Positions 933-16,587 of a stretch of 16,587 bases of DNA are shown in pieces; the stretch's first letter is position 1; each line of letters opens with the position of its first letter. Source of the stretch: Sulfurimonadaceae bacterium (GTDB lineage Bacteria; Campylobacterota; Campylobacteria; Campylobacterales; Sulfurimonadaceae); NCBI GenBank assembly GCA_041562555.1, contig JBFEXS010000044.1, positions 1 to 16,587 on the forward strand, read 5' to 3'. Made by a program: the position numbers and the translations under genes. The notes beneath the pieces are model-generated. The model searched no databases. It saw only the letters and a program-made list of their open reading frames with translations, and was not told the origin of the DNA.

Positions 933-960
933 AACGAATAAATTTAATACGGAAAATATT

Positions 961-1413
961 ATGGGCGAGACAATAGCCACTAACAAAAAAGCCTTTCATA
1001 ACTATACTATCGAGGAAAAACTTGAAGCCGGTATTGAACTGTTCGGAAGCGAAGTCAAAGCACTTCGGGCAGGAAAAGCACAGCTCAAAGAGTCCTATGT
1101 TCGCTTTATCAAAGGTGAACTCTATCTTATGAATGCCCACATCGGCGTACTCGATACGACCCATGCCTATTATAAACATGAAGAGCGCCGTGTGCGTAAA
1201 CTCCTCGTGCATAAGAAACAGCTTGCAAAATTTGCCAAGGCTGTGGACAGAGATGGGATGACGATGGTATGTCTAAGCCTCTACTTTAACCATAAAAACC
1301 TTGTAAAAGCGCAGATTGCAACTGCTAAAGGTAAGCAGCTCCATGACAAGCGTGCCGATCTCAAAGCGAAAGATCAAAAACGTGATATTGAACGAAGCCT
1401 AAAGGGGTATTGA
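961..1413 (+). CDS. smpB: SsrA-binding protein SmpB
   Basis: [42 protein letters not shown]. Start reassigned to ATG 961 (GGAAAA upstream) rather than 823, which lies inside ispE. Confidence 0.96.
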
Positions 1414-1414
1414 T

Positions 1415-2149
1415 ATGCGATTGACACCCGAACAGATCCGCGAGTTCCAGACCAACGGATTTTTATTGTTACCTCACTTTGCCGACCCCGCACTTTGTGA
1501 CGCCATCCTTGAGAAAGCAAACGAGCATCTGTCCCATAAGATTGAGCCGATAGAGAGTGAAGAGGAGTATCAACAGACCAATCATCAGGGCACGACGACC
1601 GTCCGCCGTCTTCGACAGGTCTACAACAGAGAACAGATCTTCCAAGAATGGATGACAAACCCTGAAATACGTCCAATATTGCAACAATTGCTAGAGGATG
1701 AACCCGTACTCTTACTGGCACACCATAATTCCATTATGACCAAATTACCTCAAAAAAGTTCTGTGACATCCTGGCATCAGGATATACGTTATTGGCATTA
1801 TGAGAATGACAACCTTCTCTCCGTCTGGCTGAGTCTTGGAGATGAGTTCTTGGAGAATGGTCTTTTAGAGTTTATTCCCGGCTCTCATAAGATGAAATTT
1901 ACCCTTGATCAGTTTGACGAACGTTCAAGCTTCAGGGATGACCTTCCCCAAAATAAAGAACTCATCTCTACACGGGTACATTTTAATCTGCAAAAGGGAG
2001 ATATTGTACTCTTTCATGCAAAGACACTGCATTATGCCCATCAAAATGAGACTGACAGGGCCAAGATCTCCTTTGTATATTCCTTACGCGCAGCATCCAA
2101 CAAACCGATTGCAAACACGCGAAGCGACTTCAAAGAGATCATCCTCTAG
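1415..2149 (+). CDS. PhyH-family Fe(II)/2-oxoglutarate dioxygenase (substrate unknown)
   Basis: N-terminal LTPEQIREFQTNGFL, HxD motif WHQD, NGLLEFIPGSHK, GDIVLFHAKTLH (distal His). Starts 1 nt after the smpB stop. Confidence 0.88.
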   Translation: MRLTPEQIREFQTNGFLLLPHFADPALCDAILEKANEHLSHKIEPIESEEEYQQTNHQGTTTVRRLRQVYNREQIFQEWMTNPEIRPILQQLLEDEPVLLLAHHNSIMTKLPQKSSVTSWHQDIRYWHYENDNLLSVWLSLGDEFLENGLLEFIPGSHKMKFTLDQFDERSSFRDDLPQNKELISTRVHFNLQKGDIVLFHAKTLHYAHQNETDRAKISFVYSLRAASNKPIANTRSDFKEIIL

Positions 2150-2154
2150 AGCGC

Positions 2155-2508
2155 ATGCTTATCCTCAGACAGTTTACTATCATCCTCTTTTTCTATCTTT
2201 TGGGAGAAGGGATCTCCTATCTTCTGCCCTTTAGTTTTCCCGGATCACTTATAGGAATGGGCCTGCTCTTTTTTGCTCTCATGTCCAAGTTGGTAAAACT
2301 CGAAGATATCAATACTGTTTCACACTTCTTCTTAAAATATATGGCACTCTTTTTCATTCCTGCCGGCGTATCTGTGATGACCTCCTATGACCTGATCAAA
2401 GCAGAACTTCTGCCTGTAGTTCTTGTCATAACCCTCTCCACTATCTTTATGCTTGCCCTTATTTCCAAGCTTGTTGACTTTTTTGTCCGCAAGGTTGAAG
2501 ATGTCTGA
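2155..2508 (+). CDS. CidA/LrgA family membrane protein
   Basis: 117 aa, hydrophobic, motifs LGEGI, FPGSLIGMGLLF, MALFFIPAGV; directly upstream of an LrgB-family gene. Confidence 0.9.
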   Translation: MLILRQFTIILFFYLLGEGISYLLPFSFPGSLIGMGLLFFALMSKLVKLEDINTVSHFFLKYMALFFIPAGVSVMTSYDLIKAELLPVVLVITLSTIFMLALISKLVDFFVRKVEDV

Positions 2509-3196
2509 ACTTTTGTTTAATCCTCTCTTTGGAGTTTTTCTGACCCTGGTTTGTGCATCCGTGTTTTGGTACCTCAAAACATTGAGATATCTCTCCTTCA
2601 TCAACCCTTTGCTCTTTTCTATAATCTTGATCATTTCATTGCTGCAAAGTCTTAATATACCCTATGAAGCGTACAAACAAGGGGGTGAGCTTATTCATCT
2701 CTTTTTAGGTCCGATCACCGTTGTCCTTGCCGTTCCCCTTTATGAACACAAAAAAGAACTGATGCGTCATAAAACAGCCATCTTCTTAGGTACGACCGTT
2801 GGTTCCCTATCAGCTCTGATTTCTGTTTTTGTCCTTGGCAAGTTTCTTGGGCTTTCCCAACTGTTTATCTCATCCCTCTTGCCAAAATCGATGACGACAC
2901 CTATCGGTATCTCAGCTTCACATATGCTTGATGCCATTATCGGTCTATCCGTTATCAGTATTGTTATCACCGGTATCTTTGGCGCACTCATCGCCCCCCT
3001 TGTCTTCAGGATACTCGGGATTAAAAGTTCCATTGCCAAAGGTGTTGCCCTGGGTACGACATCCCACGCTATCGGGACAGCCAAGGCTTATGAACTTGAC
3101 AAACTCTGTGGTGCTATGAGCAGTTTAAGTATTGCCTTGGCCGGACTTATCAGTGTAATATGGATTGTCTTGTTGAATGTTTTGGGTAGTGTTTAA
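2501..3196 (+). CDS. LrgB/CidB family membrane protein
   Basis: LGPITVVLAVPLY, SLLPKSMTTPIG, AKGVALGTTSHAIGTAKA. Start assigned to ATG 2501 (AAGG upstream, 8-nt overlap with the cidA-like gene). Confidence 0.9.
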   Translation: MSELLFNPLFGVFLTLVCASVFWYLKTLRYLSFINPLLFSIILIISLLQSLNIPYEAYKQGGELIHLFLGPITVVLAVPLYEHKKELMRHKTAIFLGTTVGSLSALISVFVLGKFLGLSQLFISSLLPKSMTTPIGISASHMLDAIIGLSVISIVITGIFGALIAPLVFRILGIKSSIAKGVALGTTSHAIGTAKAYELDKLCGAMSSLSIALAGLISVIWIVLLNVLGSV

Positions 3197-3210
3197 ATAG
3201 AGTAATATGT

Positions 3211-3234
3211 AAAGAATAACACCCGAAGGTGTTA
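3211..3234 (-). terminator. Intrinsic terminator of the petABC transcript (possibly bidirectional)
   Basis: Minus strand TAACACC-TTCG-GGTGTTA (7-bp stem, C(UUCG)G tetraloop) followed by TTCTTT, 7 nt after the petC stop, between convergent genes. Confidence 0.75.
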
Positions 3235-3241
3235 AGAGAGA

Positions 3242-4306
3242 TTAATGCAGGTCTTTCCAGATCTGTTTTTTCCATAAGAAAGCTGCAATGATAAAGAAGA
3301 GCATATAGATCATGACATACATACCCACTCTGTTGCGTTCCTCTTTTTTAGGATCACCCGCTTCTTCCAGATATGCTACAACTTTTTCAGCTGCTTCAGC
3401 ATTCACCCCGACACGTGGCATAGAAGTCCCAAGCAGAAGTTGCTGAGGGTCTTCGATAAACGCAGAGATATAATGTTCCCCGCGTGAACGGATATACATA
3501 GAAAGATCCGGAGGAAGTTTCCCCATGTATCCTGTGATACCTTCTTGTGCATCCAAGTGTTTGATATCGAATGCAAGGGCATCACGTTTATCTTTGAAGC
3601 TTGGTTTTGTACCTACCAGTGTCCAGTTTTTATAACGTACGTCATGACAACGTCCACAGGCATCTTGAAAAGCCACAGCTGGCGTGATCTCTTCTGTATG
3701 TGGTGCTATCTTCTGAAGATACGCGATTACATCTACGATCTGCTGATCCTCTGTCACCATATACTTAACACTGTCCATCTGGTGACTGCGCACGATGGAG
3801 AACTTGTGATCCACATTCGATGCCATTGCAGGGTCCTTGATCAGACCGATCAGATAGTTACGGTCATACAGGGCACCCGCAGTCTCAAGATCCGGAGGAA
3901 CGACACCGCCCATGGATACACTACCACCACCGATATGACAACCTGTACAGCCGGCATCATACACTGCTTCACCGGCGACAGGGTCACCATTAAGTTTAGC
4001 AATACGCTCTACATCCGCCCAAAAGGCTTTTTTGGCGTCACGTCTTGCCTCAGCGGCTTTCATCTCTTCATCCAGAGCTGCCAGTTTGGCAGCATCGGGC
4101 TTTTCAACCTCTTTTGCTGCTTTGATATCTTCTCTGATCTTAGTGATTTTTGTATCAACCTCGGCAATATCTGACTCACCGTTGTATACAAAGCCTTTGA
4201 TCTCCACATGCTTGTGCATCTGCCCATGGGCAAACGGCTCAACCAAAAAATACGTCAGAAGTGAAAAGGCAACAACGACGCTTAAAATTACTAGTTCTTT
4301 TTTCAT
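3242..4306 (-). CDS. petC: Di-heme cytochrome c1 subunit of the cytochrome bc complex
   Basis: Two CxxCH motifs (CTGCH, CGRCH), two PPDL motifs, GTSMPRVG, C-terminal TM anchor ending WKKQIWKDLH; follows petB. Confidence 0.93.
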   Translation of the reverse strand: MKKELVILSVVVAFSLLTYFLVEPFAHGQMHKHVEIKGFVYNGESDIAEVDTKITKIREDIKAAKEVEKPDAAKLAALDEEMKAAEARRDAKKAFWADVERIAKLNGDPVAGEAVYDAGCTGCHIGGGSVSMGGVVPPDLETAGALYDRNYLIGLIKDPAMASNVDHKFSIVRSHQMDSVKYMVTEDQQIVDVIAYLQKIAPHTEEITPAVAFQDACGRCHDVRYKNWTLVGTKPSFKDKRDALAFDIKHLDAQEGITGYMGKLPPDLSMYIRSRGEHYISAFIEDPQQLLLGTSMPRVGVNAEAAEKVVAYLEEAGDPKKEERNRVGMYVMIYMLFFIIAAFLWKKQIWKDLH

Positions 4307-4316
4307 CTATTGTCCC

Positions 4317-5531
4317 TTACAGCTTTTTTTCAGATTTAGTGATAAATGGCAATGCGATCCATAATACAAAGAACATATAAGCCGCATACATACCAATTGT
4401 ATTCCAAGCACCCTCCGGTGGAAGTTTACCCATAGCAGTCAATACAATCAAATCCACTACCATCAACCAGAACCAGATCGCAAAAGGGCCCCTTCGGTTT
4501 GCCGGCGCGACATTCTCGCTTCTGTCCATAAACGGCAATGCGAAGAAGATCACCTGCGCGATACCGAATGCGATCAGACCTACATCCTTACCAAACGGAC
4601 GTAAGATTTCATATGACCATAGGAAATACCATTCCGGATAGATATGTGCCGGTGTCACAAGACCGTTTGCCGGATCAAAGTTGATCGGATCCATCGCAAA
4701 ACCGTAGTGCCAGAAGGTCAAGTAAAAGAAGAACATCAGGAAGACCGAGACAACAAACATATCCTTAGACATAAAGTCATTCGCAAAACGAATCACTTTT
4801 GAATCGGCTTTGTCTCCGTCCAGATATTTTTTTGACTCAGCTTCAAAATCAATCTCTTCACCATCCTGATTATTAACATGAGGAATACGAAGTGCCGCAA
4901 AGTGAACACCGATAAGCGCGATGATCGCCAACGGAAGTAAGAGTACGTGCAGCATAAAGAAACGGTTCAAGAAAGCTTGTCCAGGGACATAATCACCACG
5001 GATCCACTCAACTACACCGTTAAGCTCCAGCGAACCTGCAGAGAAAAGGTTGGTAATTACCATACCTGCCCAGTAAGACATTTGACCCCATGGAAGCATA
5101 TACCCCGAAAACGCCTCTGCAGAGAAGGTCACGAACAGAAGCATTCCTGAGATCCAGATCATCTCACGACCTTTCTTATATGAGCCGTAGTAGATACCCG
5201 TCAACATATGGATATAAATGATCAAGAAGACGACTGAAGCCGCTACCGCATGAATATGTCTCCACAACCAACCAAAACCGACCTCCTGCATGATCGTGTA
5301 GTTTACACTGTCAAAGGCAGTCTCGATATTTGGCTGATAATACATCAATAAAAAGATACCGGAGATAAGAAGTAGACCAAAAGTCACTGCCAATACCATC
5401 CCCATTGCCCATAGGAAGTTTATGTTTTTTGGGATCCAATATTCGGAAGCCATGACTTTTTCGACTTTTTCAATTGCAAGACGTTGATTCAACCAGTCTT
5501 TTACACTTGTTGCTTTTGTAAATTTTGCCAT
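4317..5531 (-). CDS. petB: Cytochrome b of the bc complex
   Basis: GWLWRHIHAVAAS, YIHML, GYMLPWGQMSYW, RFFMLHVLLLP..GVHF, PAHIYPEWYF (PEWY motif). Confidence 0.97.
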   Translation of the reverse strand: MAKFTKATSVKDWLNQRLAIEKVEKVMASEYWIPKNINFLWAMGMVLAVTFGLLLISGIFLLMYYQPNIETAFDSVNYTIMQEVGFGWLWRHIHAVAASVVFLIIYIHMLTGIYYGSYKKGREMIWISGMLLFVTFSAEAFSGYMLPWGQMSYWAGMVITNLFSAGSLELNGVVEWIRGDYVPGQAFLNRFFMLHVLLLPLAIIALIGVHFAALRIPHVNNQDGEEIDFEAESKKYLDGDKADSKVIRFANDFMSKDMFVVSVFLMFFFYLTFWHYGFAMDPINFDPANGLVTPAHIYPEWYFLWSYEILRPFGKDVGLIAFGIAQVIFFALPFMDRSENVAPANRRGPFAIWFWLMVVDLIVLTAMGKLPPEGAWNTIGMYAAYMFFVLWIALPFITKSEKKL

Positions 5532-5544
5532 CTGTTTCCCTTCC

Positions 5545-6069
5545 TTAAGCGACGACGCCGTCAGCTTTCATTTTTTGATATTCTGGGCCCTCTTCACCAA
5601 GCATAACGATATTGCCCGTTATTTTGAATGGAGGGATGACAAGCGGTGATGGAGGTGGGGACTTCGTCTGAATACCGGAAGCATTGAACTCTCCACCATG
5701 GCATGCACACTGAAAATCTTTCTTCGCATCTCTGTAGGCAGGAATACATCCCAGATGCGTACACAGACCGATCGTGATCATATAGTGACTTCCATCAACA
5801 ATAACATCACGAGCCAGCTCTTCTGCACTCTGACCAGCAACCATTTCTGCCGTTTTTTTCAAAACGAAGATCGGTTTGCCACGCCATTTTTCAACAACAA
5901 GTTTGTTCTCTTCGATTCGAGATAGATCGATCTCAGTAAAACCCGCTGCCTTTACACTTGGAAGTGGATCCCATGAGCTTTTCATCGCTACTAAAGAACC
6001 AACCGCCCCAATACCAGCAACAGCACCGAATGCTTTGCCCATAAATCCGCGTCTGCTTGACTTTTCCAT
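5545..6069 (-). CDS. petA: Rieske iron-sulfur subunit of the bc complex
   Basis: Tat motif SRRGFM; Rieske boxes CTHLGC and CACHGGEF (Gly/Phe at the positions typical of low-potential, menaquinol-oxidising Rieske proteins). Confidence 0.96.
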   Translation of the reverse strand: MEKSSRRGFMGKAFGAVAGIGAVGSLVAMKSSWDPLPSVKAAGFTEIDLSRIEENKLVVEKWRGKPIFVLKKTAEMVAGQSAEELARDVIVDGSHYMITIGLCTHLGCIPAYRDAKKDFQCACHGGEFNASGIQTKSPPPSPLVIPPFKITGNIVMLGEEGPEYQKMKADGVVA

Positions 6070-6272
6070 TATTTCTCACTTTTATGACTTAAATTCCAAC
6101 TATCTTATGACCTAGGTATCTGCATCTGTCATACATAATCGGCTTGTTCATGAATATAACCTGCTTATAATACTGATTTATGATTTAAATAAGAGTTAAG
6201 TCAGTGATTTTTAAAAAAAATACACTATTTTTGTAGCATTTACACATTTCTCGGATTACGCGTGTATATTAT

Positions 6273-6329
6273 AGGATGGAGGCCTGGGGTCAATGGGGAC
6301 CTGTTCTTTTAGACCTGTCCATCCATCCT
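6273..6329. repeat. GC-rich nested inverted repeat between mnmG and petA
   Basis: AGGATGGA (6273-6280) / TCCATCCT (6322-6329) enclose GGTC-AATGGG-GACC (6288-6301); GACCTGT occurs twice (6298-6304, 6312-6318). Function unknown. Confidence 0.5.
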
Positions 6330-6341
6330 CTTTAAAAACCT

Positions 6342-8231
6342 TTATTCGGAGGTTTTTGATTCGCTTTTTTGCCCCATCTTAATATAAATCTGTAATATCT
6401 CGATTGCGGCCGGAGTAACCCCTGAAATCTGTGAAGCGGCCTGCAGCGTCGGTGGATTGAACTTCTCAAACTTCTCGATCATCTCATTGCTTAGGCCTTT
6501 GACGATTTTAAAATCAAAGCCTTCAGGGATCTTCATCTTAAGCTGTTTTTTCATCTTGTTGATGTCGTTGAGCTGTTTTTCGATGTAACGGGCATATTTT
6601 GCTTCGATCAGGATCTGATTTTGCACATACTCGCTGTACTCGGCAATACGCGGCTCAAGTTTAAGAAGCTTATCCAGGGTAAAACTTTTACGCGCAGCGA
6701 TATTGATTGCCTTGGTCTTATCGGTAATATGCATCTCGTCCATGGACTCTAAAAAGGCCAAGAACTCTTTATTCGGCTTGCACTCTTGTTCGTTCAAATA
6801 TTTGACACCCGCTTCTATCTGTGACTTTTTCAATGCGACTTCTGCCATCTCTTCATCACTGATCAGGCCCAGCTCATGTCCATAATGACTCAAACGAAGA
6901 TCCGCGGACTCTTCTCTAAGCAGGAGTCTGTATTCTGCTCTTGAGGTGAACATACGATACGGCTCTTTTGTCCCTTTAGTCACCAGATCATCGATCATCA
7001 CACCGATATACGCTTCATCCCGTCTCAGGACAAAAGGTTCATTCCCCTGATTTGCCAATGCAGCATTGATCCCTGCCATCAATCCTTGGGCTGCAGCCTC
7101 TTCATATCCTGTCGTGCCATTAATCTGACCTGCGAGATACAGGTTTTTAATCTTTTTTGTTTCCATCGAATGGGTAAGATCGGTAGGATTTACATAATCA
7201 TACTCAATCGCATATCCATAACGTACGATACGGGCATTTTCCAGCCCCTTAACCGAATGGATCATGTCACGTTGTACATCCGGTGGCAGTGAGGTTGACA
7301 TCCCATTGACATACACCTCAGTGTTTTCCCAGGTTTGAGGCTCGATAAAGAGATGATGTCGGTCTTTGTCTCTAAAACGGTTGATCTTGTCTTCAATACT
7401 CGGACAGTAACGCGGCCCTACTCCTTCGATCTGACCCGAAAACAAAGGAGCCCTATGAAAATTCGATTCGATGATCTCATGCGTTCTTTCATTGGTATAC
7501 GCAATAAAACATGGAAGCTGCTGCTTCTCTTTTACAAACGCTTCTCTGTCGGTTCTAAAGGAAAAAGGTGCAGGAAGTTCATCTCCCGGTTGCTCTTCCA
7601 AGACTGAGTAATCAATGCTCGAACTGTCTACACGGGGGCAGGTACCCGTCTTAAGACGACCTATATCCAATCCAAGTTCCCTTAATTGCAGACCCAGTTT
7701 TTTTGCAGAAAACTCACCAAACCGTCCCGCTTCATGCGTCGTTTCACCGATATGGATCACCCCTTGTAAAAAGGTTCCCGTAGTCAAGATCACCTTTGAA
7801 GCCATAAACTCGTTTAGGAACTCCGTCTTGACACCGACGACACTATCCCCATCCATGATAAGCTCATCTACCGTTTCCTGGATCAATTCAAGATTCGGAG
7901 TGTTCAGGGTGATATTACGGGCAATGACACGATAGCGGTCCATATCAATCTGTGCCCGTGTTCCACGGACAGCAGGTCCTTTGGCAGCATTGAGTATACG
8001 AAATTGTATCCCTGCCTCATCGGTGATCAAACCCATCTGACCTCCCAAGGCATCCAGTTCTTTGACCAGATGTCCCTTAGCCAGTCCACCTACGGCAGGG
8101 TTACAAGAGGTAGCACCAACATTTTCAGCGAGCATTGAAATCAAGAGGGTACGTTGATTCATACGTGCGGCAGACAGAGCGGCTTCAATCCCGGCGTGTC
8201 CTCCACCGACAACAATTACATCATATTGCAT
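6342..8231 (-). CDS. mnmG: tRNA uridine-5-carboxymethylaminomethyl(34) synthesis enzyme MnmG (GidA)
   Basis: [93 protein letters not shown] upstream. Confidence 0.98.
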
Positions 8232-8282
8232 TAGCAGTCCTTCTGAACCTATTTTAAAGGTTGAGAAAATTTTAATAATGAA

Positions 8283-8291
8283 ATTATACCC
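8283..8291 (-). promoter_or_regulatory. Probable sigma70 -10 box for mnmG
   Basis: Minus strand GGGTATAAT (TATAAT at 8288-8283), about 50 nt upstream of the ATG in an AT-rich divergent spacer. Confidence 0.55.
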
Positions 8292-8382
8292 TTAATATAT
8301 GCCTTTGCCTAGTTTCTGCGTATATTCAGCTCTGTTACATAAGAGTTTCTTATCTTATTAACTGATGATTTGCAATTAACTT

Positions 8383-8391
8383 TGTTATACT
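8383..8391 (+). promoter_or_regulatory. Probable extended -10 box for the kinase gene
   Basis: TGTTATACT (TGn-TATACT) 65 nt upstream of ATG 8457. Confidence 0.45.
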
Positions 8392-8456
8392 TGCCTAGCT
8401 TTATGTTAATGAGATAGAATTATTATAACTACAAGGAAACAGGTGGCGATACGATT

Positions 8457-9692
8457 ATGTCTGATATGATGTTATTTGCAGATGATGACACACCAGAAAC
8501 AAAACCGAGAGAGGATGCATGGAAACTCTTTATTGTCGATGATGATAAAGACATTCATGAGATCACGAAATTAGCCCTTAAAGATCTTAAGTTTAAGGAC
8601 AAAACCATCTCTTTTGAGTCAGCCTTCAGCGCTGAAGAAGCGATCAATGAACTCAAAACCAATCCAAAGTTTGCCATTGTATTACTTGACATTGGCATGG
8701 AGACATCCGATGCAGGTCTTGAAGTTGCGAACTTTATCCGCAAACAACTCAATGACAACCTTACTCGTATCATTATCCGGACAGGTCAGCCGGGAGAGAC
8801 ACCTGAGCGTGAGATCATAGATGATTATGATATCAATGATTTCAAATCAAAAACAGAGCTCACCATTGAACGTCTTTTTAGTACGATTCGAACAGCCATC
8901 GCCCAATATGATCAGATCAATGAACTCGCTAAACTTAATGCCGAACTCGAAGAACGCATCGAACGCGCGTTAATCGCCCAGGAAGAGCAGCAAAAAGCCC
9001 TTATGTTACAAGATCGTACCGTACAGATGGGTGAACTCTTGAATATGCTTGCCCACCAATGGCGTCAGCCATTATCACGCATATCTGCTGTTACCTCCCA
9101 ACTGAAGTTTTCTCTTGCTTTGGGAGAACTCAACACAGAAGAGTTTGACAAACAGGTCGACAGTATTGAAAAATATACCGATGAGCTTTCACATACCATT
9201 GATGAGTTTAGAGCTGTCTATAAACCGAGTGAAACCGACAAGAAAGTGCCCCTGTGTGAACTCTTGGACAAGGCGGTATCTATTATCAATGCTTCTTTCA
9301 ATAATGACACGATCCAGATTCATCTTGACTGTGCAACAGATGACCGGAAGCACTTTGTATCCACTGCCTTGTATCAGGTTATCCTTAACCTATTAAAAAA
9401 TTCTGAAGAAGCCTTTATAGGGCAAGAGATTGAAGATCCAAACATAAATATCTCCTTCTCCTTTCTTGATGATGCTATCAAGATCTATATTGCCGACAAT
9501 GCAGGTGGAATCAATGAAGAAGACCTGGAGCGTATTTTCGAGCCGTACTTTTCGACCAAAGAAAAGAGAAATGGTCATGGGCTCGGGCTCTACATGAGCA
9601 AGAATATTCTCGAACAGCACTGTGATGGAAAGATCGAAGTTAAAAACACCTCTGCAGGTGCCTGTTTCACAATTACTCTTGCAAATAAATAA
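8457..9692 (+). CDS. Cytoplasmic hybrid histidine kinase (REC-coiled coil-HisKA-HATPase)
   Basis: Receiver motifs IVDDD, LLDIGM, RTGQPG, FKSK; H-box LAHQWRQPLS; N-box NLLKNSEEA; G1 DNAGGI; F IFEPYFSTK; G2 GHGLGLY. No transmembrane segment. Confidence 0.92.
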   Translation: MSDMMLFADDDTPETKPREDAWKLFIVDDDKDIHEITKLALKDLKFKDKTISFESAFSAEEAINELKTNPKFAIVLLDIGMETSDAGLEVANFIRKQLNDNLTRIIIRTGQPGETPEREIIDDYDINDFKSKTELTIERLFSTIRTAIAQYDQINELAKLNAELEERIERALIAQEEQQKALMLQDRTVQMGELLNMLAHQWRQPLSRISAVTSQLKFSLALGELNTEEFDKQVDSIEKYTDELSHTIDEFRAVYKPSETDKKVPLCELLDKAVSIINASFNNDTIQIHLDCATDDRKHFVSTALYQVILNLLKNSEEAFIGQEIEDPNINISFSFLDDAIKIYIADNAGGINEEDLERIFEPYFSTKEKRNGHGLGLYMSKNILEQHCDGKIEVKNTSAGACFTITLANK

Positions 9693-9750
9693 TTCTATAA
9701 CCTAGACTTTATTATACTTGCGGAACTAAATCAATTATGAAGATATTACA

Positions 9751-10434
9751 ATGATACAAGAAGCCCATAACGCATACAATTCAGGAGACTTTGACAAAGC
9801 CTTTAAACTCTATACGACTTTAGCTGAAGCGGGTGACGGAGCAGCTCAGGCAAGCCTTGGCTATATGTTCCAAAACGGTCAGGGTACACGTGAAGATATT
9901 GATAAGGCGGCACATTGGTATCAGCAATCTGCCAACCAGGAACACCCTCTTGCCATGTATAATATTGCCGTACTGATGATGCATGGAAAAGGTGTTGCCC
10001 ATGATATGTTTAAAGCCCATGAGTACTTTTTACAAGCAGCGATAAAAGAGGTCCCCCAAGCCCAATATGAGACAGCAATGATGTTTGAAAAAGGTTTGGG
10101 TTGTACTCAGAATTTTTCCGAGGCCGCTTTTTGGTATGAGGAGGCAGCTAAACGCGGGAACATGGAAGCCTTCAATAATCTAGGTGTTCTTTACAAAGAA
10201 GGGCATGGCGTACCTATGGATTATCAAAAAGCTTTCTATCTCTTTACCAGAGCGGCTGAGGCCAATGTCCCTACAGCCCAATATAATCTCGGACAGATGT
10301 ATGATCAGGGGCATGGTTGTGAAGCAGACCAGGACAAGGCACTGGAATGGTGTCGTAAAGCAGCCTATTCAGGGCACGAGAAGGCACAAAAGATCATCGC
10401 ACAACTTCAAGCCGATGGAAAGATCGTCTTCTGA
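9751..10434 (+). CDS. Sel1-like repeat protein
   Basis: Five complete 36-aa repeats of the AQxxLGxMYxxGxGxxxDxxKAxxWxxxAA type plus partial flanking repeats; no signal peptide. Confidence 0.92.
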   Translation: MIQEAHNAYNSGDFDKAFKLYTTLAEAGDGAAQASLGYMFQNGQGTREDIDKAAHWYQQSANQEHPLAMYNIAVLMMHGKGVAHDMFKAHEYFLQAAIKEVPQAQYETAMMFEKGLGCTQNFSEAAFWYEEAAKRGNMEAFNNLGVLYKEGHGVPMDYQKAFYLFTRAAEANVPTAQYNLGQMYDQGHGCEADQDKALEWCRKAAYSGHEKAQKIIAQLQADGKIVF

Positions 10435-11357
10435 TGCGTTTTCATGATTTTCTTAAAGCAGTAGGAACCGGTCCCAAAGGCAATCGCCACCTCAGCAGAG
10501 AAGAGATGAAAGAAGCCATGGGAATGATGCTTGACGGCACTGCCATACCCGAACAGACTGCAGCTTTTTTACTGGGCTGGCGGGTTCAGGGTGAAGACCT
10601 GGATGAACTGCTTGGGGCTATCGATGCGATGCATGCGCGTATTCAACAAACACCCATTAAAAAAAGCCTTGAAATCGGATATCCCCTTGATGGTAAAATC
10701 AAATCGGCACCGGTAATGCTGCTTGCTGCCAAACTTATCCCAAAGATCCCCCTCGTCATCCATGGAGACAGAGCCCAGCCTTCCAAATTGGGATTTAATC
10801 CTAAAGACTTCCATGAGAATATGAAACTTCCTTCGAATATCAACTATTTTGATAGAGCAAACTTTTTCCCGGAGCTTTCCAAGCTTACGGATTTAAGACG
10901 TTCCCTTGGGCTGCGCTCTGCTTTCAATACCATTGAAAAGCTTCATAATGTCGCCGATAGTGATTATGCACTGATCGGGATGCATCATCTTCCCTACTTT
11001 GATCTTTATAAAGAGCTTTACGGTCCAAAATATAAACGGCTCATAATCGTCAAAGGGAGTGAAGGTACACCGGAGATCCTCAAGAAGAGCAAGATCCTTG
11101 TCGTTGAAGGCGGGCATTCCCACTCTCTACCGATCGATCCGGAATATTTCGGGCTCAAGCCATTTCCTTCCGACAAAGAGATGAGTCTGCAGGAGATGAT
11201 TGATCAGCTTGAAAACCCAAGTGAGGAGATGCTTGGATATGCACGACTCAATGCAGCACTTTTGATGTATGCAGCCGATCAAACAACAAGCATCGAAGAG
11301 GGCTTTGCCTCCTTGCAAGCAAATTATGATAAACTGATCAAAAAGCATTTGGGATAA
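10434..11357 (+). CDS. YbiB-like / anthranilate phosphoribosyltransferase-fold protein (glycosyltransferase family 3)
   Basis: FLKAVGTGPKGNRHLSREE, QTAAFLLGWRVQGE, LRRSLGLRSAFNTIEKL, GMHHLPY, KGSEGTPE match the YbiB branch. The TrpD PRPP-binding GTGGD motif is absent. Start overlaps the Sel1 stop (TGATG). Confidence 0.8.
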   Translation: MRFHDFLKAVGTGPKGNRHLSREEMKEAMGMMLDGTAIPEQTAAFLLGWRVQGEDLDELLGAIDAMHARIQQTPIKKSLEIGYPLDGKIKSAPVMLLAAKLIPKIPLVIHGDRAQPSKLGFNPKDFHENMKLPSNINYFDRANFFPELSKLTDLRRSLGLRSAFNTIEKLHNVADSDYALIGMHHLPYFDLYKELYGPKYKRLIIVKGSEGTPEILKKSKILVVEGGHSHSLPIDPEYFGLKPFPSDKEMSLQEMIDQLENPSEEMLGYARLNAALLMYAADQTTSIEEGFASLQANYDKLIKKHLG

Positions 11358-11360
11358 GTC

Positions 11361-11975
11361 ATGTTCACAGGTTTGATACGCGAGATGGCAACTGTTCAAA
11401 GCTACGCCAACAATGAACTCACCCTGCAAGCGGATTACACTCCAAAGATAGGGGACTCAATCGCTATCAATGGGGCCTGTCTTACGGTGATCAGGCTTTT
11501 TCCCAACGGTTTTTCCGTTGAACTCTCCCCCGAAACGCAAACACATATCGCCACTGACAATCTAAAAGGCAAGGTACATATGGAGCCCGCCATGGCTATG
11601 GGAGATCGGTTTGAAGGGCATATTGTACAGGGACATATCGATTGCATCGGTGAGATCACTCAGATCCGGGACAATGGGAACTCTATAGATTTCTATCTCA
11701 GTATACCTCAGGATCAACGCCGTTTTCTTGTTCCCAAGGGTTCTGTTACCGTCGATGGGGTAAGCCTTACGATCAACGAAGTTACTGCAGAAGGGTTTCG
11801 ACTCACTATTATTCCCCATACTCTTAAAGAGAGTCTCTTTGGCGTCTATAAGATAGGACACAGGGTAAATATTGAAACGGACATGTTTGCCCGTTATATT
11901 TATCATCTCTTTAATCCTGAGCAGAAACAATCCCTCACATGGGATGATGTTTCCAAGATATCTGCCCTCTATTAG
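11361..11975 (+). CDS. ribE: Riboflavin synthase (alpha chain; ribC in E. coli nomenclature)
   Basis: Diagnostic N-terminal MFTGLI, GDSIAINGACLTV, GHIVQGHID, KGSVTVDGVSLT, VNIETD. Confidence 0.96.
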   Translation: MFTGLIREMATVQSYANNELTLQADYTPKIGDSIAINGACLTVIRLFPNGFSVELSPETQTHIATDNLKGKVHMEPAMAMGDRFEGHIVQGHIDCIGEITQIRDNGNSIDFYLSIPQDQRRFLVPKGSVTVDGVSLTINEVTAEGFRLTIIPHTLKESLFGVYKIGHRVNIETDMFARYIYHLFNPEQKQSLTWDDVSKISALY

Positions 11976-11983
11976 GTACTAAT

Positions 11984-12259
11984 ATGCGGCATTCTGAGCA
12001 AGGACTTAAAGCTGCTGCACTCAAATATGACAGTGATCAGAATGCCTCACCCGAACTTCTTGCCAAAGGCCGGGGTGAGGTTGCCCAAAAGATTTTAAAA
12101 CTGGCCAAAGAGCATGACATCTCCGTCTTTCAAAATAAAGCACTCGTAGATTCTTTGTTGGAACTGGACGTCCATGAAGAGATTCCGCCCAGACTTTACC
12201 AGGCAGTCGCCGAACTTTTTTCGTGGCTGATCCGTACTGAGAATCGTAACCTTGACTAG
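11984..12259 (+). CDS. FlhB C-terminal-like (FlhX/HP1575-type) small protein
   Basis: AAALKYD...PELLAKGRGEVAQKILKLAKEHDI..LVDSL...EIPPRLYQAVAELF corresponds to the FlhB C-terminal fragment; no TM region and no NPTH cleavage motif. Confidence 0.88.
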   Translation: MRHSEQGLKAAALKYDSDQNASPELLAKGRGEVAQKILKLAKEHDISVFQNKALVDSLLELDVHEEIPPRLYQAVAELFSWLIRTENRNLD

Positions 12260-12272
12260 AGGCAGTTTGATA

Positions 12273-14144
12273 TCAGTATTTCAAACAGTTTCGTCCCGCT
12301 TCTTTAGCCAAATAGAGTTGTACGTCGGAAGCTTTATACATCTCATTGGAACTCATTGACGCTTCACCCGGTTCATGGATAACAAGTCCTCCGGAGACGG
12401 TAACGATGTAATAGTTCTCATTATATTTATGCTCTATTTTGAGAGCGGCAATGGAATCAATCACCTTCTGTGCGAATCCGATAACCTTGTTTTTTGTCTC
12501 ACCGGTAAATATGACGAGGAACTCTTCACCCCCCATGCGGAATACAAAGTCATCAGGCCTTTCCAGTACCGAAGTAAACCTATTGGCGACTTGCATTAAT
12601 ACCTGATCACCTTGTTGATGTCCATAATTGTCATTGTAGCGCTTAAAGTTGTCGATATCCAGGATAAAATATCCAAAACAGACCTGATTCCGTTGTGCAC
12701 GCTTGATTTCATTTTCAATGATCTGTGCATAGTAGCGTCGGTTGTAAAGACCAGTAAGCTCATCTGTGATCGATAGTTTTTGTACCTTTTCCATCATCAC
12801 TTCGAGGTCACGTGTACGTTCATAGACCTGTTGTTCAAGTGAATGACTCAGTTCTTCCAGCTCTTTTTTAGCAGTAATGATATTACGGATAGCACTGTAC
12901 CCGACGATATTCCCCTTTCTGTCAAACTCCGGAGTGACAAACACCTCTACCCAATAATCGCTACCGTCTTTTCGTTGGTTTTTGATCTCCCCTGACCACT
13001 CCTTGCCAGACTGGATCGTCTCCCACATCTGCTTGTACACTTCTTTTGGCATATCTACATGACGGACTATATTATGGGGCTTTCCGATAAGCTCTTCCAG
13101 CGTATAACCCGAGATCTCACAAAACGCTGTACTGGCATAGATGATAAGCCCTTTTTTGTCTGTCTCCGAAGCAATAACATGCCTGTCAAACTTACTGATA
13201 AGTTTTTTGACTTCACGATTGGCATTTTCGAGTTCAATAACCTTCTCCTGAAGATCAATATTAAGTAAACAGACCTTCTCATGCAATGCACTCTCTCTGT
13301 AGTTATTGTAGAGCAATAACAGCAATAATAACAATATGACCGAATTCATGACATAAAAGTTAAACTGGTTATCTTGATCTCTATCTTCGAAATCCTCGAG
13401 TAATAACTTATACATCTGATCAATGGTAGTACCAATCAAAAGAGCATTATGTGCCTTTTGCAATGCCTCCATCAACTCTTGTCCTTCTACAAGGACATTG
13501 ACATGTTTTTCCATAGCCCTGGTTAAGCCTAATAATTGTTTATCATCCTTAAACTCTTTTTTTAAGATCTCAATCTGTTCAATTAAGGACCTTTTATCAG
13601 ACAGACGATCATAACTGATCAGCGCGACCATCAATGCAATCTCATCCAGGACTTCTTCAGAAAAATGCTCTTTTTTACTTGTACCTTTTTGTCGTATCTT
13701 TTTCTTTATATGACCGTGCATATCATAAAGAACACGCGTTGAGTTGATAGTCAAACCGTTCCAGGATTTATAACGTTCAATATAGGTCTGAGACTCTTTA
13801 AAACTGCTATCAAGTCTTTCATATAATGCAGCAAACTCCTTACGGCCATTATCCGTATCGACTAAAGCATGCTCTTTGAGCAGGAGTAAAACGTTAGTAA
13901 ACTCGCGGGTATCCCCGGTAATAGCATCAAAACTCTGATGATTAACATTCTTCTCAAACAGCCCGTCGATTTTTTGATGTATGGTCTTTAGATTTTTAAG
14001 CTCATGCAGCAAGCCATACTCTCGGTTCATCTCATTTTTGTTGCTGATTATATAGAAGACTTCCATAATGACTAAAAATAAAAGAAGTAGTAAAAGTTTA
14101 TTGACACCCGTTCTCTTACAAACTCTTTGTTCTGCTCTACTCAT
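12273..14144 (-). CDS. Membrane diguanylate cyclase: TM-periplasmic helical (DAHL-like) domain-TM-PAS-GGDEF
   Basis: TM at about aa17-33 and 261-279; periplasmic region with IERYKSWNGLTINS; PAS GKPHNIVRHVDMP..MW..KNQRKDGSDYWV; GGDEF domain with TDELTGLYNRR, DIDNFKRYNDNYGHQQGD, I-site RPDD and active site GGEEF. Confidence 0.92.
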   Translation of the reverse strand: MSRAEQRVCKRTGVNKLLLLLLFLVIMEVFYIISNKNEMNREYGLLHELKNLKTIHQKIDGLFEKNVNHQSFDAITGDTREFTNVLLLLKEHALVDTDNGRKEFAALYERLDSSFKESQTYIERYKSWNGLTINSTRVLYDMHGHIKKKIRQKGTSKKEHFSEEVLDEIALMVALISYDRLSDKRSLIEQIEILKKEFKDDKQLLGLTRAMEKHVNVLVEGQELMEALQKAHNALLIGTTIDQMYKLLLEDFEDRDQDNQFNFYVMNSVILLLLLLLLYNNYRESALHEKVCLLNIDLQEKVIELENANREVKKLISKFDRHVIASETDKKGLIIYASTAFCEISGYTLEELIGKPHNIVRHVDMPKEVYKQMWETIQSGKEWSGEIKNQRKDGSDYWVEVFVTPEFDRKGNIVGYSAIRNIITAKKELEELSHSLEQQVYERTRDLEVMMEKVQKLSITDELTGLYNRRYYAQIIENEIKRAQRNQVCFGYFILDIDNFKRYNDNYGHQQGDQVLMQVANRFTSVLERPDDFVFRMGGEEFLVIFTGETKNKVIGFAQKVIDSIAALKIEHKYNENYYIVTVSGGLVIHEPGEASMSSNEMYKASDVQLYLAKEAGRNCLKY

Positions 14145-15051
14145 GGATTTCGCCCGTCAATGTTTTTAAGAACAAAAGAATTTTTTCTATCTCATCCTCT
14201 TCCAGCATCCGCCCTAACTGGACATCTACCATTATCTCCACCGCTTCTTTAAGCGTTGCTGCACTACCGTCATGAAAATAAGGGGCTGTCTTCTCCACAT
14301 TGCGAAGACTTGGTACCTTGAAGTAGTATTTGTCGAATTCCTTCTTTGTCACATTGTAACGACCAAGGTCTTCTGAATTACTTGGAAGGTTCCCAAAAAC
14401 ACCGATCTTCTGATAGAGTGTCCCACCTATGTTGATACCATTATGGCACGCTACACACCCTTTTGTCTTAAAAAGTCTCAGACCCTCTTTTTCCTCGGAG
14501 TTCAGGGCCTTTTCATCCCCTTCCAAATAACGATCGAATCTCGAATTTGGTGTGACCAGACTCTTCCCGAATTCAGCCAGGGCATCCGCGATATTTGCAG
14601 CTGTTATGCCATCATCGTAAAGACGCCCAAAATACCTGGTATATTTCTTCTCTTTACCAAGTTTTTCAATGACACGTTCCATGCTCTCATTCATCTCAAT
14701 AGGATTGACAATTGGTTCAAGAGCCTGTTCCTTCAGATCCTTGGCCCGTCCATCCCAAAACTGAGAAAAGTTATACACCGCATTCCATACCGTCGGAGTA
14801 TTACGCTTACCCATTGCTCCGTCTACGCCAAAAGACTTTTGAAGATTATCCACACCGTAATTAACTAAGGGATGACAGGTGGCACACGAGATACTCTTAT
14901 CCCTGGAAAGTAACGGGTCGTGAAACAGCGATCGGCCTAACGCCGCTTTCTCAGAATCTACCTGCACATTCTCAGGCAAAGCTTCAAACAGGTTTTCGTC
15001 AGCCAAAACCGCCACGGTAAACAGCACAATAGAAATGATAATCTTACCCAT
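14137..15051 (-). CDS. Di-heme cytochrome c peroxidase family (CcpA/MauG superfamily) periplasmic protein
   Basis: Signal peptide; LGRSLFHDPLLS, SCATCH, NTPTVWN, QFWDGRA, NPIEM, GCVACHNG, FKVPSLRNV, TAPYFHDG; SD AGGAGG at 15064-15059. Confidence 0.94.
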   Translation of the reverse strand: MGKIIISIVLFTVAVLADENLFEALPENVQVDSEKAALGRSLFHDPLLSRDKSISCATCHPLVNYGVDNLQKSFGVDGAMGKRNTPTVWNAVYNFSQFWDGRAKDLKEQALEPIVNPIEMNESMERVIEKLGKEKKYTRYFGRLYDDGITAANIADALAEFGKSLVTPNSRFDRYLEGDEKALNSEEKEGLRLFKTKGCVACHNGINIGGTLYQKIGVFGNLPSNSEDLGRYNVTKKEFDKYYFKVPSLRNVEKTAPYFHDGSAATLKEAVEIMVDVQLGRMLEEDEIEKILLFLKTLTGEIHE

Positions 15052-15058
15052 GTTTCAA

Positions 15059-15080
15059 CCTCCTGCTTTTAACTATTGTA
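15059..15080 (-). promoter_or_regulatory. Probable -10 box (TACAAT) and strong RBS (AGGAGG) for the peroxidase-cyclase pair
   Basis: Minus strand CAGTACAATAGTTAAAAGCAGGAGGTTGAAACATG; TACAAT at 15080-15075. Confidence 0.5.
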
Positions 15081-15104
15081 CTGTTTTTTAAAGATATTTG
15101 AAAA

Positions 15105-15854
15105 TCAATTCTCATCACGCAAGGCCTTTGTATCAGGGTTACAACGCATCTTATGTTCTACATCCACCTTCTCATAAGGCAATGGCGACTTTGAAGCGAG
15201 TGTGGCATTTCTGAAGCCTTCCCCCTTGTGTAAAAAGACCTTTAAACCATTCTTATACAGGGCGATACGTGTTGCCAACGCCGTCGAATAGGTCGTCAAA
15301 ATTGCATCCTCTTTCATCAAGGCAGCGATATCGCCGAAATATTCACGCGTCCACAACATCGGGTTAGCAGAGGGAGAGAATGCATCCTGATACACCACAT
15401 CAAACTTAATGTCTGTCTCCCTGACAAAGACCCGGGCATCCCCCAAGTAGATATTGATGTCAATATTTTGTGTGCGGTAATGCTGCTTTTGTGATAGTGA
15501 TTGTATCACCTCGGTTAATTCATGGAACTCTTCAGGATAGGTAAAATGTGTCAAAGAACGGACCAGATCCGCATCAAACTCAGGAGAATATATCCTCACT
15601 CTTTTGTCACTTCCCTTGAGAGCATATAGGGTTGCCAGGGTGTTAAAACCCAAACCAAAGCATATATCTAGGATCGTGATCTCTTCCTTGTCCTGGCAAT
15701 GTTTAAGTGCCGGTAAAACATGCTTGGACATCGACTCATGCAAAGCCCCGTCTTTGGTAGAATGGTAGTGCTCATTAAATGTTTTTGAGTAGGCCGTATA
15801 TGAGCCGTCTTTACTTTTTACAGCTTGATGTTCCTGGGTGTTAAAACTGTGCAT
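15105..15854 (-). CDS. mnmD: Stand-alone MnmD/MnmC2-type tRNA (mnm5s2U34) SAM-dependent methyltransferase
   Basis: DGSYTAYS..FNEHYHS..GALHES, ILDICFGLGFNTL, GDAR, YQDAFSPSANPMLWT, LTTYS; no FAD-oxidase (MnmC1) domain. Confidence 0.85.
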   Translation of the reverse strand: MHSFNTQEHQAVKSKDGSYTAYSKTFNEHYHSTKDGALHESMSKHVLPALKHCQDKEEITILDICFGLGFNTLATLYALKGSDKRVRIYSPEFDADLVRSLTHFTYPEEFHELTEVIQSLSQKQHYRTQNIDINIYLGDARVFVRETDIKFDVVYQDAFSPSANPMLWTREYFGDIAALMKEDAILTTYSTALATRIALYKNGLKVFLHKGEGFRNATLASKSPLPYEKVDVEHKMRCNPDTKALRDEN

Positions 15855-15952
15855 ATCCCCACTTTTCTATAGTCATACTCTCAAATTGAGTATCGCACAG
15901 GTACAGACAGACCTGTTCTCACGTTCGTATTGTTTTCTTTAACTGATCCAGA

Positions 15953-16558
15953 CTAATCTTTGATCTGTCTGTTTTGCCTGCGCAGCTCTTGTAACTTATC
16001 GTAGATAGTGTCATCATGAGCATAGATCCTAAAACGGACATAAGGTTCTAGGATATCGTAAACCAACTCTTGATCCGCCCAACACTGTCTTCCAAAAGCA
16101 TGCGTAAATATGCCAATGATCTTCCCTTGTAAGAAAGGACAGCCCCAACGTTCTTCATCCGGTAACTCTTTTTGCATGGAGAGCTCCCAGGGATTTCGCA
16201 CAATCACCTCTGCATTCGTAGTCTCAGCATCCATATAAGGCAACTCAAAAAGTCCCCATCCCGCAGCACTTACGGCTTTTCCCCAAAGTAAAAACCCCTC
16301 TTCAAAATTATCCGAAAACTGGGTTACCATCGCATGATAGTCCTCTTCTGTCCCCAAGCTCGATGAATGTGCTACAAGTAGATTGAAAAGCTCTCTGCCC
16401 AACTCTTGTTCCAAGGGTTGTAAAAGATGCAGTAAAGAAGGGTTGTTCCAAAAAAGTGTAGATGGGATACCGAAAAAACGCAGATCGACCGTCTGCGTGT
16501 TCCAGGAGATCCCTACACCATTAACACTAATTGACTTTTGATGTTCATTTACTCCCAT
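15953..16558 (-). CDS. Hypothetical protein, probable V4R/XylR-A-like ligand-binding domain with short C-terminal helix
   Basis: 201-aa ORF with SD AAAGGA; pattern AGWGLFE...VRNPWE...GCPFLQGKIIGIF..AFG resembles V4R-type sensor domains. The ORF is well supported; the fold assignment is from memory. Confidence 0.6.
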   Translation of the reverse strand: MGVNEHQKSISVNGVGISWNTQTVDLRFFGIPSTLFWNNPSLLHLLQPLEQELGRELFNLLVAHSSSLGTEEDYHAMVTQFSDNFEEGFLLWGKAVSAAGWGLFELPYMDAETTNAEVIVRNPWELSMQKELPDEERWGCPFLQGKIIGIFTHAFGRQCWADQELVYDILEPYVRFRIYAHDDTIYDKLQELRRQNRQIKD

Positions 16559-16587
16559 AAGATTCCTTTGGGTAAAGATATCAATAA

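Follow-up and report, generated by a model that had tools for sequence, protein, structure and literature searches.

What does a periplasmic cytochrome c peroxidase (CCP) have to do with a membrane receptor that is predicted to synthesize cyclic di-GMP (c-di-GMP)? The question is raised by two genes on the minus strand of a 16,587-nucleotide stretch of DNA from a Sulfurimonadaceae bacterium (assembly GCA_041562555.1, contig JBFEXS010000044.1, positions 1 to 16,587), the whole of which is referred to here as the window. One of the genes encodes P0001, a di-haem CCP of the type of DocA from Campylobacter jejuni, and the other P0002, a receptor with a DAHL domain. A preliminary description, made from the letters of the window, had proposed that the two form a modular redox-sensing system in which the haem protein is a periplasmic co-sensor. 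Our surveys revealed that the pairing of DAHL and CCP genes is close to obligate, and that it is real and general. Since nearly all of the DAHL sensors examined have such a partner beside them, we regard the peroxidase as a probable component of the sensor and not just an enzyme of detoxification, and we consider it very likely that peroxidase and receptor are functionally coupled in some way. According to a more specific reading, the receptor detects peroxide or redox state by means of the peroxidase, which would be its haem-containing co-sensor in the periplasm and would set the synthesis of c-di-GMP; this has in our judgement about an even chance of being right. The CCP-DAHL pair was already known, if uncharacterised, and what the window adds is a PAS-GGDEF output in a Sulfurimonadaceae relative.

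Pairing of DAHL receptors with peroxidases

Among 61 related genomes of one order, 36 contain DAHL domains, with 46 matches, and every one of the 46 was inspected together with about 5 kb of flanking DNA on either side (the order survey). A CCP gene lies immediately upstream of the DAHL gene and on the same strand in 45 of these 46 loci, with gaps of -54 to +19 nt between the two. The sole exception, L009, is a 1,920-bp contig that is cut inside the 5' end of the receptor gene, and a different contig of the same genome (L074) carries a DocA-type CCP whose end is 253 nt from that contig's start. A further survey in another class was centred on a Rhodoferax metagenome-assembled genome (MAG), where 42 of 250 genomes hold DAHL domains. 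The 35 loci examined comprise the 30 best-scoring of 55 matches (one shared) and five from a separate search, and a CCP is directly upstream in 33 of them.

The reverse survey started from the 80 closest genomic relatives of P0001, found with a CCP alignment, and a DAHL receptor is directly downstream in 66 of these (65 recognized by a local hidden Markov model (HMM) made from the DAHL alignment, and one more, L187, by Pfam). These 66 loci are spread over the Campylobacterota, Alpha-, Beta- and Gammaproteobacteria, Myxococcota, Acidobacteriota, Planctomycetota, Verrucomicrobiota, Cyanobacteria and Armatimonadota, and the top match of the search, from a Sulfurimonadaceae MAG, has 74% identity. 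The 80 relatives were chosen as the best CCP matches, so the sample is biased in favour of DocA-like proteins. Among the 14 loci where the partner is missing, L178 is a canonical CCP of Vibrio that has the distal histidine, and L139, L151 and L170 belong to a subgroup whose neighbouring genes are uncoupled. Taken in both directions, these counts bear out the conserved adjacency on which the preliminary description had made its proposal depend.

Variations on the two-gene arrangement were also observed. There are tandems, such as CCP-DAHL-CCP-DAHL in L046 (G049), a single DAHL gene preceded by two CCP genes in L045 (G033) and two tandem CCP genes in L276. Downstream of the DocA-like CCPs of a Binatia MAG (L145, 4378-7281) and an Opitutia MAG (L158, 4522-6843) are large open reading frames (ORFs) of 968 and 774 aa, respectively, neither of which had a Pfam match at E 1e-3.

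The two genes have also been inherited together. Distances between DAHL domains and between CCPs are correlated (Mantel r 0.649, against a maximum of 0.196 over 1,000 random permutations), and the true pairing came out first among all 3,072 possible ways of re-pairing paralogues inside the eight genomes that have more than one pair. Adjacent genes are expected to travel together; therefore, the re-pairing result indicates that the pairs were duplicated and kept as units, and not that the proteins are in contact. Genomes of the same genus provide a further view of this site (11984-15104 in the window). In the window the pair is flanked by an FlhB-like ORF and an MnmC-like gene. In two that lack DAHL (G012, L307; G013, L311) the FlhB-like ORF abuts the MnmC-like gene and the pair is absent, and in two others (G005, L309; G001, L310) the pair adjoins ribE and the FlhB-like ORF is absent there. 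The empty site in the former and the ribE site in the latter indicate that both genes were gained or lost together.

The peroxidases that accompany DAHL receptors are largely of one lineage, a point that the preliminary description had marked for checking. The same 61 genomes gave 154 CCP_MauG matches, of which 150 were listed, and a quick maximum-likelihood tree of 87 rows took in the 45 DAHL-adjacent CCPs and 40 further regions (every non-adjacent match with a frame of at most 335 aa and higher-scoring ones in list order), leaving out about 65 non-adjacent matches and one 227-aa fragment. Of the 45 DAHL-adjacent CCPs, 44 group with five others in one clade of 49 with an SH-aLRT support of 90, and 29 canonical CCPs, about 340 aa in length, make up a separate clade (support 100). 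The last of the 45, L066, is on a long branch beside the DAHL-linked clade, and the branch that has all 50 DAHL-linked CCPs on one side and 37 others from the same genomes on the other has a weak support of 71. The rows nearest to P0001 are DAHL-linked CCPs of its own genus (63-73% identity). The five non-adjacent members of the clade also follow the pairing rule: the gene behind L076 is a DAHL-like ORF (2.6e-17 by the local HMM and 0.04 by Pfam), that behind L077 a truncated DAHL-like ORF of 188 aa (1.1e-9) and that behind L075 a hybrid kinase in which Pfam matches DAHL weakly, at 0.002 (its local-HMM match is built in, as it is a member of the alignment). L074 is a locus cut by the contig end, and L045_6771 is an additional, tandem CCP that precedes a CCP-DAHL pair. 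The genome of the window has three further CCP_MauG genes (L108-L110; G000:C38, C13 and C90), one of which belongs to the canonical clade (339 aa) and two of which are divergent (380 and 478 aa), one of the latter on a very long branch.

What follows the DAHL domain inside the cell is, by comparison, variable. In the order survey, 16 of the 46 receptors have GGDEF-EAL without PAS, 13 have PAS-GGDEF-EAL (one with a degenerate GGDEF) and nine are histidine or hybrid kinases. The PAS-GGDEF type of the window accounts for four, all within its genus, and there is one each of a GGDEF without PAS, a SpoIIE phosphatase, a receptor cut behind its PAS by the contig end, and a DAHL-only ORF of 273 aa. 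Among the loci of the 80 P0001 relatives, the outputs include methyl-accepting chemotaxis proteins (MCPs; L127, L168, L180 and L186), hybrid kinases that bear Hpt, and SpoIIE. A modular reading, in which CCP and DAHL are constant and the output is exchanged between GGDEF, GGDEF-EAL, histidine kinase, PP2C phosphatase and MCP, is therefore well supported, since the adjacency is conserved across both genomes and outputs. We rejected the idea that the receptor regulates the CCP gene, since neither an MCP nor a c-di-GMP output has a direct effect on transcription. In one genome (G050) two DocA-type CCPs are followed by DAHL-only ORFs, of 273 aa (L068, 4344-5165) and 188 aa (L077, 4778-5344), which may be decayed receptors or partners without an output.

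The peroxidase, the receptor and their locus

As judged by its sequence, P0001 is a predicted secreted di-haem protein and a true relative of the peroxidases. It has two CXXCH motifs and matches PF03150 (CCP_MauG) at 1.2e-57 with 195.2 bits, against a cut-off of 25.6. The nearest solved structures are the CCP of Nitrosomonas europaea (1iqc, 8e-81) and 9qdt (2e-79), an entry named in no paper found by a search of the literature's text, and MauG chains follow at about 1e-28. The best NCBIfam rows are MauG (176.2 bits, cut-off 443.85) and MbnH (169.9 bits, cut-off 362.85), and both scores are below their cut-offs. Residues W99, Q109, E119, H260 and M274 and both CXXCH motifs are kept in 48-50 of the 50 members of the DAHL-linked clade, and the W99, Q109, E119 and M274 columns also in 29 of 29 canonical CCPs. 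From the CCPs of Pseudomonas aeruginosa and N. europaea we take W99 to be the inter-haem Trp, Q109 and E119 the catalytic Gln and Glu, and M274 the ligand of the electron-transfer haem, a column that is Met in 48 of the 50. This conservation of haem and catalytic columns indicates that the DAHL-linked CCPs are working redox proteins.

One position sets the clade apart. In classical CCPs that are reductively activated, a distal histidine ligates the peroxidatic haem in the resting enzyme. The corresponding column in the DAHL-linked clade holds Val in 31, Ile in 17 and Phe in one of 50 members and His in none, whereas in the canonical clade it holds His in 24, Tyr in four and Phe in one of 29, and the loop is two residues shorter in the former than in the latter. 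In the alignment to P0001, 9qdt likewise has Val there. The DAHL-linked CCP would thus be an enzyme active in redox chemistry, with a peroxidatic haem that no protein ligand closes.

P0002 has the order transmembrane helix, DAHL, transmembrane helix, PAS and GGDEF. The preliminary description had recognized the DAHL and GGDEF domains but overlooked the PAS domain between the second transmembrane helix and GGDEF. The HMM, the GGEEF motif and the RxxD site that it had read as intact, all agree in making P0002 a predicted diguanylate cyclase. PF19443 (DAHL) matches aa 70-257 with E 1.9e-10 and 41.3 bits, above its cut-off of 38, and a six-frame search of the genome with the DAHL profile scored the domain at 43.4 bits. 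This confirms the suspected DAHL character of the domain, which would be extracytoplasmic, as it lies between the two transmembrane helices (hydrophobic stretches at about aa 16-34 and 261-279, from hydropathy windows at aa 12-36 and 260-279). It had been described as helical-looking and about 225 aa in length, and an AlphaFold2 model made from 46 aligned domains is all-helical, with seven helices, one of them of 52 residues (pLDDT 90.4, pTM 0.83). In a Foldseek search with this model the best solved folds were the TorS sensor 3i9y (E 1.2e-3, TM-score 0.56), the HBM domain of McpS (TM-score 0.61-0.68) and PilJ. These double four-helix-bundle sensors range from 0.44 to 0.68 in TM-score, and the TorS-TorT complexes 3o1h-j were also listed. 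No solved fold was below E 1e-3 in that search and sequence identities were 8-12%; a profile of the DAHL alignment matched none of the solved structures.

Conserved polar columns are a feature of the DAHL domain. In a set of 111 domains that spans many phyla, D73 is retained in 108, S135 in 97, N134 in 96, H214 in 94, K126 in 85 and N129 in 84, and H214 is present in 32 of 32 domains from outside the Campylobacterota. Among 46 DAHL domains there is no conserved Trp or Cys column, and the semi-conserved aromatic columns are Tyr or Phe at positions 72, 125 and 138. Outside the genus, the identity of the DAHL domains falls to 10-20%, whereas their partner CCPs remain at 40-73%. Coordinates of the features of both genes are given in Table 1.

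Table 1. Positions in the window of the peroxidase and receptor genes and of their features
Feature	Position	Strand	Basis
Di-haem CCP gene, DocA-type (P0001, 304 aa)	14137..15051	-	PF03150 1.2e-57; DAHL-linked CCP clade
Predicted signal peptide of P0001, aa 1-17 (MGKIIISIVLFTVAVLA)	15001..15051	-	Hydrophobic window aa 4-22; cleavage site inferred from sequence
Haem motif 1, CATCH, aa 56-60 (peroxidatic haem)	14872..14886	-	C and H kept in 49-50 of 50 clade members
Val76, at the distal-histidine column of classical CCPs	14824..14826	-	Alignment: V opposite H of SIGH in 1iqc
Haem motif 2, CVACH, aa 199-203 (electron-transfer haem)	14443..14457	-	Motif read; column conservation
Receptor diguanylate cyclase gene (predicted), DAHL-PAS-GGDEF (P0002, 623 aa)	12273..14144	-	Pfam and NCBIfam matches
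Transmembrane helix 1, about aa 16-34	14043..14099	-	Kyte-Doolittle windows > 2.0 (windows aa 12-36)
Periplasmic DAHL domain (predicted), aa 34-262	13359..14045	-	PF19443 41.3 bits; AlphaFold2 model
DAHL signature IERYKSWNGLTINS, IERxKSxNxxxxNS, aa 122-135	13740..13781	-	Read; columns kept across DAHL domains
Transmembrane helix 2, about aa 262-280	13305..13361	-	Hydrophobic window
Cytoplasmic PAS domain (predicted), aa 327-418	12891..13166	-	PAS_3 1.9e-18, PAS 5e-17; TIGR00229 9e-21
GGDEF domain, aa 459-619	12288..12770	-	PF00990 1e-41, 142.9 bits; TIGR00254 1.7e-43, 148.2 bits
RxxD I-site RPDD, aa 529-532	12549..12560	-	Read; five residues before GGEEF
GGEEF active-site motif, aa 538-542	12519..12533	-	Read
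Stop/start overlap of P0001 and P0002, 8 nt, ATGAGTAG (putative translational coupling)	14137..14144	-	Read from ORFs
Shine-Dalgarno AGGAGG, 7 nt ahead of the peroxidase ATG	15059..15064	-	Read from sequence
Promoter-like TTTTCA-18-TACAAT upstream of the peroxidase gene	15075..15104	-	Consensus scan, 9/12 matches

Several statements of the preliminary description about the locus, namely the overlap of 8 nt between the peroxidase and cyclase genes, a strong ribosome-binding site and a position between unrelated genes, proved accurate. The 3' neighbour of the cyclase gene is a convergent 91-aa ORF that resembles the C terminus of FlhB, with 13 nt between them, and the upstream neighbour of the peroxidase gene is the MnmC-like methyltransferase gene; both are unrelated to the pair. 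Its claim of a candidate -10 box of the pair's own stands in so far as a promoter-like site is present (15104-15075), but this site is a consensus match only and weak alone, as 17 such sites were observed in this AT-rich region where 8.0 were expected. The genome (2.1 Mb in 137 contigs, 89% complete) has a single DAHL match. DNA of the window, whole or in part, is present in five DNA runs from two studies (marine metagenome), and the same search of sequencing runs found no RNA run that contains the stretch.

Other genes of the window can be noted briefly. A set for Rieske protein, cytochrome b and a di-haem cytochrome c (3242-6069, minus strand), which would form a bc1-type complex, is 6 kb from the pair and is a possible electron source for periplasmic cytochromes. 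A cytoplasmic REC-HisKA-HATPase hybrid protein is encoded at 8457-9692 (plus strand) and is followed by a Sel1-repeat protein at 9751-10434. In addition, a GHMP-kinase ORF (162-932) and an SmpB ORF (823-1413), both on the plus strand, overlap by 110 nt as called; the SmpB match begins at residue 51, so the true start of SmpB is probably later than called.

A proposed two-protein sensor weighed against other explanations

How might a peroxidase and a DAHL receptor work together? We propose that the products of the two genes form a single periplasmic sensor made up of two proteins. The overlap of stop and start codons would cause the exported di-haem peroxidase to be made in step with the receptor. 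Its peroxidatic haem, lacking the distal histidine that keeps classical enzymes closed, could react at once. The peroxidase may dock on the DAHL domain, probably at the small polar patch formed by D73, K126, N129, N134, S135 and H214, and the oxidation or ligation state of its haems would be set by H2O2 (or another haem ligand) on one side and the supply of electrons from the cytochrome c pool on the other. That state would then be relayed via the DAHL bundle and the second transmembrane helix to PAS-GGDEF, raising or lowering c-di-GMP synthesis. In its most general form, in which DocA-type peroxidases are always-open di-haem proteins and obligate co-receptors that dock on the conserved D/K/N/N-S/H patch and transduce H2O2 or the redox state of the cytochrome c pool, we put the proposal forward tentatively, as somewhat short of an even chance.

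Beyond the linkage itself, the fold of the DAHL domain argues for such an arrangement, since the model is nearest to the TorS sensor, which is partner-bound in the solved complexes 3o1h-j. Proteins in which the two parts are joined are of interest here as well. A fusion search covered 524 long CCP homologues, 120 of them listed, and PF03150 and PF19443 were found in one protein in five cases among the matches listed and in two more in a further search. In P0005 (836 aa, 58% identical to P0001) the CCP is joined to DAHL with no transmembrane helix between them, and a transmembrane helix and then a kinase follow; P0024 (843 aa) has the same joining, followed by a transmembrane helix and a class III nucleotide cyclase. 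This joining is topologically coherent, and the support it lends is weak. A different line of evidence comes from P0032 and P0052, whose sequences were read and which are membrane Ser/Thr protein kinases with one transmembrane helix and an extracytoplasmic di-haem CCP domain. Seven further clusters have the same Pfam pair in their Pfam lists (P0044, P0062, P0064, P0075, P0081, P0089 and P0134). Ser/Thr kinases with an outer CCP domain indicate that in some proteins the CCP domain serves as a sensor module.

There are, however, several points that weigh against a docked co-sensor. Linkage and co-inheritance of adjacent genes are no proof of binding, and the partner is absent in 2 of the 35 DAHL loci and in 14 of the 80 CCP loci. 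The low identity of the DAHL domains beside that of the CCPs fits a small conserved interface, and equally no interface. P0005 and P0024 are single metagenomic sequences on short contigs (4,474 and 3,440 bp, respectively). A scan of 80 metagenome loci with P0005 found no recurrence, the nine inspected (seven of them long matches) being ordinary two-gene pairs, and a metagenome scan with P0024 found no relative. The other candidate fusions, P0026, P0027, P0029, P0126 and P0129, were rejected as evidence, since either a transmembrane helix still separates their domains or the sequence seems to be frameshifted, and they are probable artefacts. Finally, the founding DAHL receptor, Tlp10, is said to bind many small ligands by itself in work by Elgamoudi in 2021, and a DAHL domain may therefore not need a partner.

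There is another explanation, which we consider rather unlikely: the peroxidase is an ordinary enzyme beside the receptor that removes or respires periplasmic H2O2, while the DAHL domain senses small molecules alone. The linkage would then amount to co-expression, which might, for instance, protect the receptor or influence the gradient of peroxide in its surroundings, and not to signalling from one protein to the other. The direct binding of amino acids, organic acids and sugars that is reported for the DAHL domain of Tlp10, and cited in PMC9796306, fits this well, as does the retention of all catalytic and haem-ligand columns in P0001, whose closest solved relatives, 1iqc and 9qdt, are true peroxidases. 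A 2026 paper also states that the CCPs of C. jejuni may take periplasmic H2O2 as an electron acceptor (PMC13462783). However, an ordinary enzyme would have no reason to precede nearly every DAHL gene and almost nowhere else, nor to be duplicated together with the receptor, and a separate canonical CCP is usually present in the same genomes. In addition, docA mutants are reported in PMC3156733 not to be peroxide-sensitive.

Two further explanations can be considered. We regard as improbable a role for the peroxidase as a maturase in the manner of MauG or MbnH, which would use H2O2 for a one-time oxidation of a DAHL residue, producing a side chain needed by the receptor. MauG and MbnH are members of the CCP_MauG family that are known to modify a partner protein encoded nearby, they head the NCBIfam rows of P0001 (176 and 170 bits), and some aromatic columns of DAHL are semi-conserved (72, 125 and 138). 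But those scores are far under the cut-offs, the MauG chains are matched so much more poorly than the true peroxidases (about 1e-28 versus 8e-81), the Met ligand column of the electron-transfer haem is kept in 48 of 50, and the 46 DAHL domains have no conserved Trp or Cys column. Very improbable, in our view, is a flow in reverse, from a ligand-bound DAHL receptor that governs how active the peroxidase is or how it is supplied with electrons. The same linkage data would fit, as nothing here fixes the direction, but the cytoplasmic transmitter domains, classical and of many kinds, imply signalling from outside to inside, and no precedent for the opposite is known to us.

Implications and comparison with known systems

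Although DAHL is a common sensor domain, it has hardly been studied, and bacterial CCPs tend to be classed as enzymes of detoxification or respiration. If the two-protein sensor that we propose is real, it would represent a widespread and so far undescribed class of haem sensors in at least eight phyla, feeding c-di-GMP, phosphorelay, PP2C and chemotaxis outputs. Bacteria would be able to pass peroxide or redox signals directly from the periplasm to c-di-GMP, phosphorelay and chemotaxis, and many 'peroxidase' annotations would need to be re-read. A testable explanation would also be at hand for docA of C. jejuni, whose loss impairs colonisation without making the cells sensitive to peroxide. 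In the present lineage of sulfur-oxidising marine bacteria, which inhabit oxic-anoxic interfaces, the sensor might govern the choice between biofilm and motility. The DAHL domain is named in PMC9796306, and our literature search, in which papers that mention both were judged by titles and abstracts, found no paper linking the domain in general to peroxidases.

Among haem enzymes, the classical CCPs of N. europaea (1iqc) and P. aeruginosa (1eb7), together with 9qdt, are approximately 45-50% identical to mature P0001 and have both haem motifs in common with it. Unlike the classical CCPs, the DAHL-linked clade has Val or Ile at the distal His column and the loop that is shorter by two residues. 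MauG and MbnH are in the same Pfam family and resemble P0001 as proposed here in acting on a protein encoded nearby, but P0001 falls far under their NCBIfam cut-offs and its PDB matches to them are some 50 orders of magnitude weaker than those to CCPs.

The proposed pair also has counterparts among signalling systems that consist of two proteins. TorT-TorS and LuxP-LuxQ, like the pair, combine a membrane sensor that has a long helical periplasmic domain with a separately encoded periplasmic partner, and ChvE-VirA is a further membrane sensor with such a partner. The partners in TorT-TorS and LuxP-LuxQ are, however, periplasmic binding proteins for small ligands and not haem enzymes, and sequence similarity is nil (8-12%). 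The haem proteins H-NOX and NosP, as well as YfiR of the YfiR-YfiN (DgcN) system, are encoded beside a kinase or GGDEF enzyme that they control by contact. YfiR acts in the periplasm, and H-NOX and NosP in the cytoplasm on NO; none is a peroxidase, and their folds and cofactor chemistry are unrelated to those of CCP-DAHL.

The closest likeness is to DocA (Cj0020c, CcpA1) and DocB/Tlp10 (Cj0019c) of C. jejuni, which the preliminary description had already invoked. As in the window, the CCP gene is immediately upstream of the gene for the DAHL receptor and translationally coupled to it, according to PMC3156733 and PMC13462783, and the former states that the CCPs of C. jejuni do not contribute to H2O2 resistance, in agreement with the background given in that description. 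Campylobacter loci of our survey (L127 and L168) likewise have a CCP and then a DAHL-MCP. An interaction between DocA and Tlp10 is itself speculation in print, in that the Discussion of the 2026 paper (PMC13462783) has DocA signalling the availability of peroxide to Tlp10. The window differs from the C. jejuni pair in its output, which is PAS-GGDEF with predicted c-di-GMP synthesis and not an MCP, and in its host, an uncultured marine relative of the Sulfurimonadaceae.

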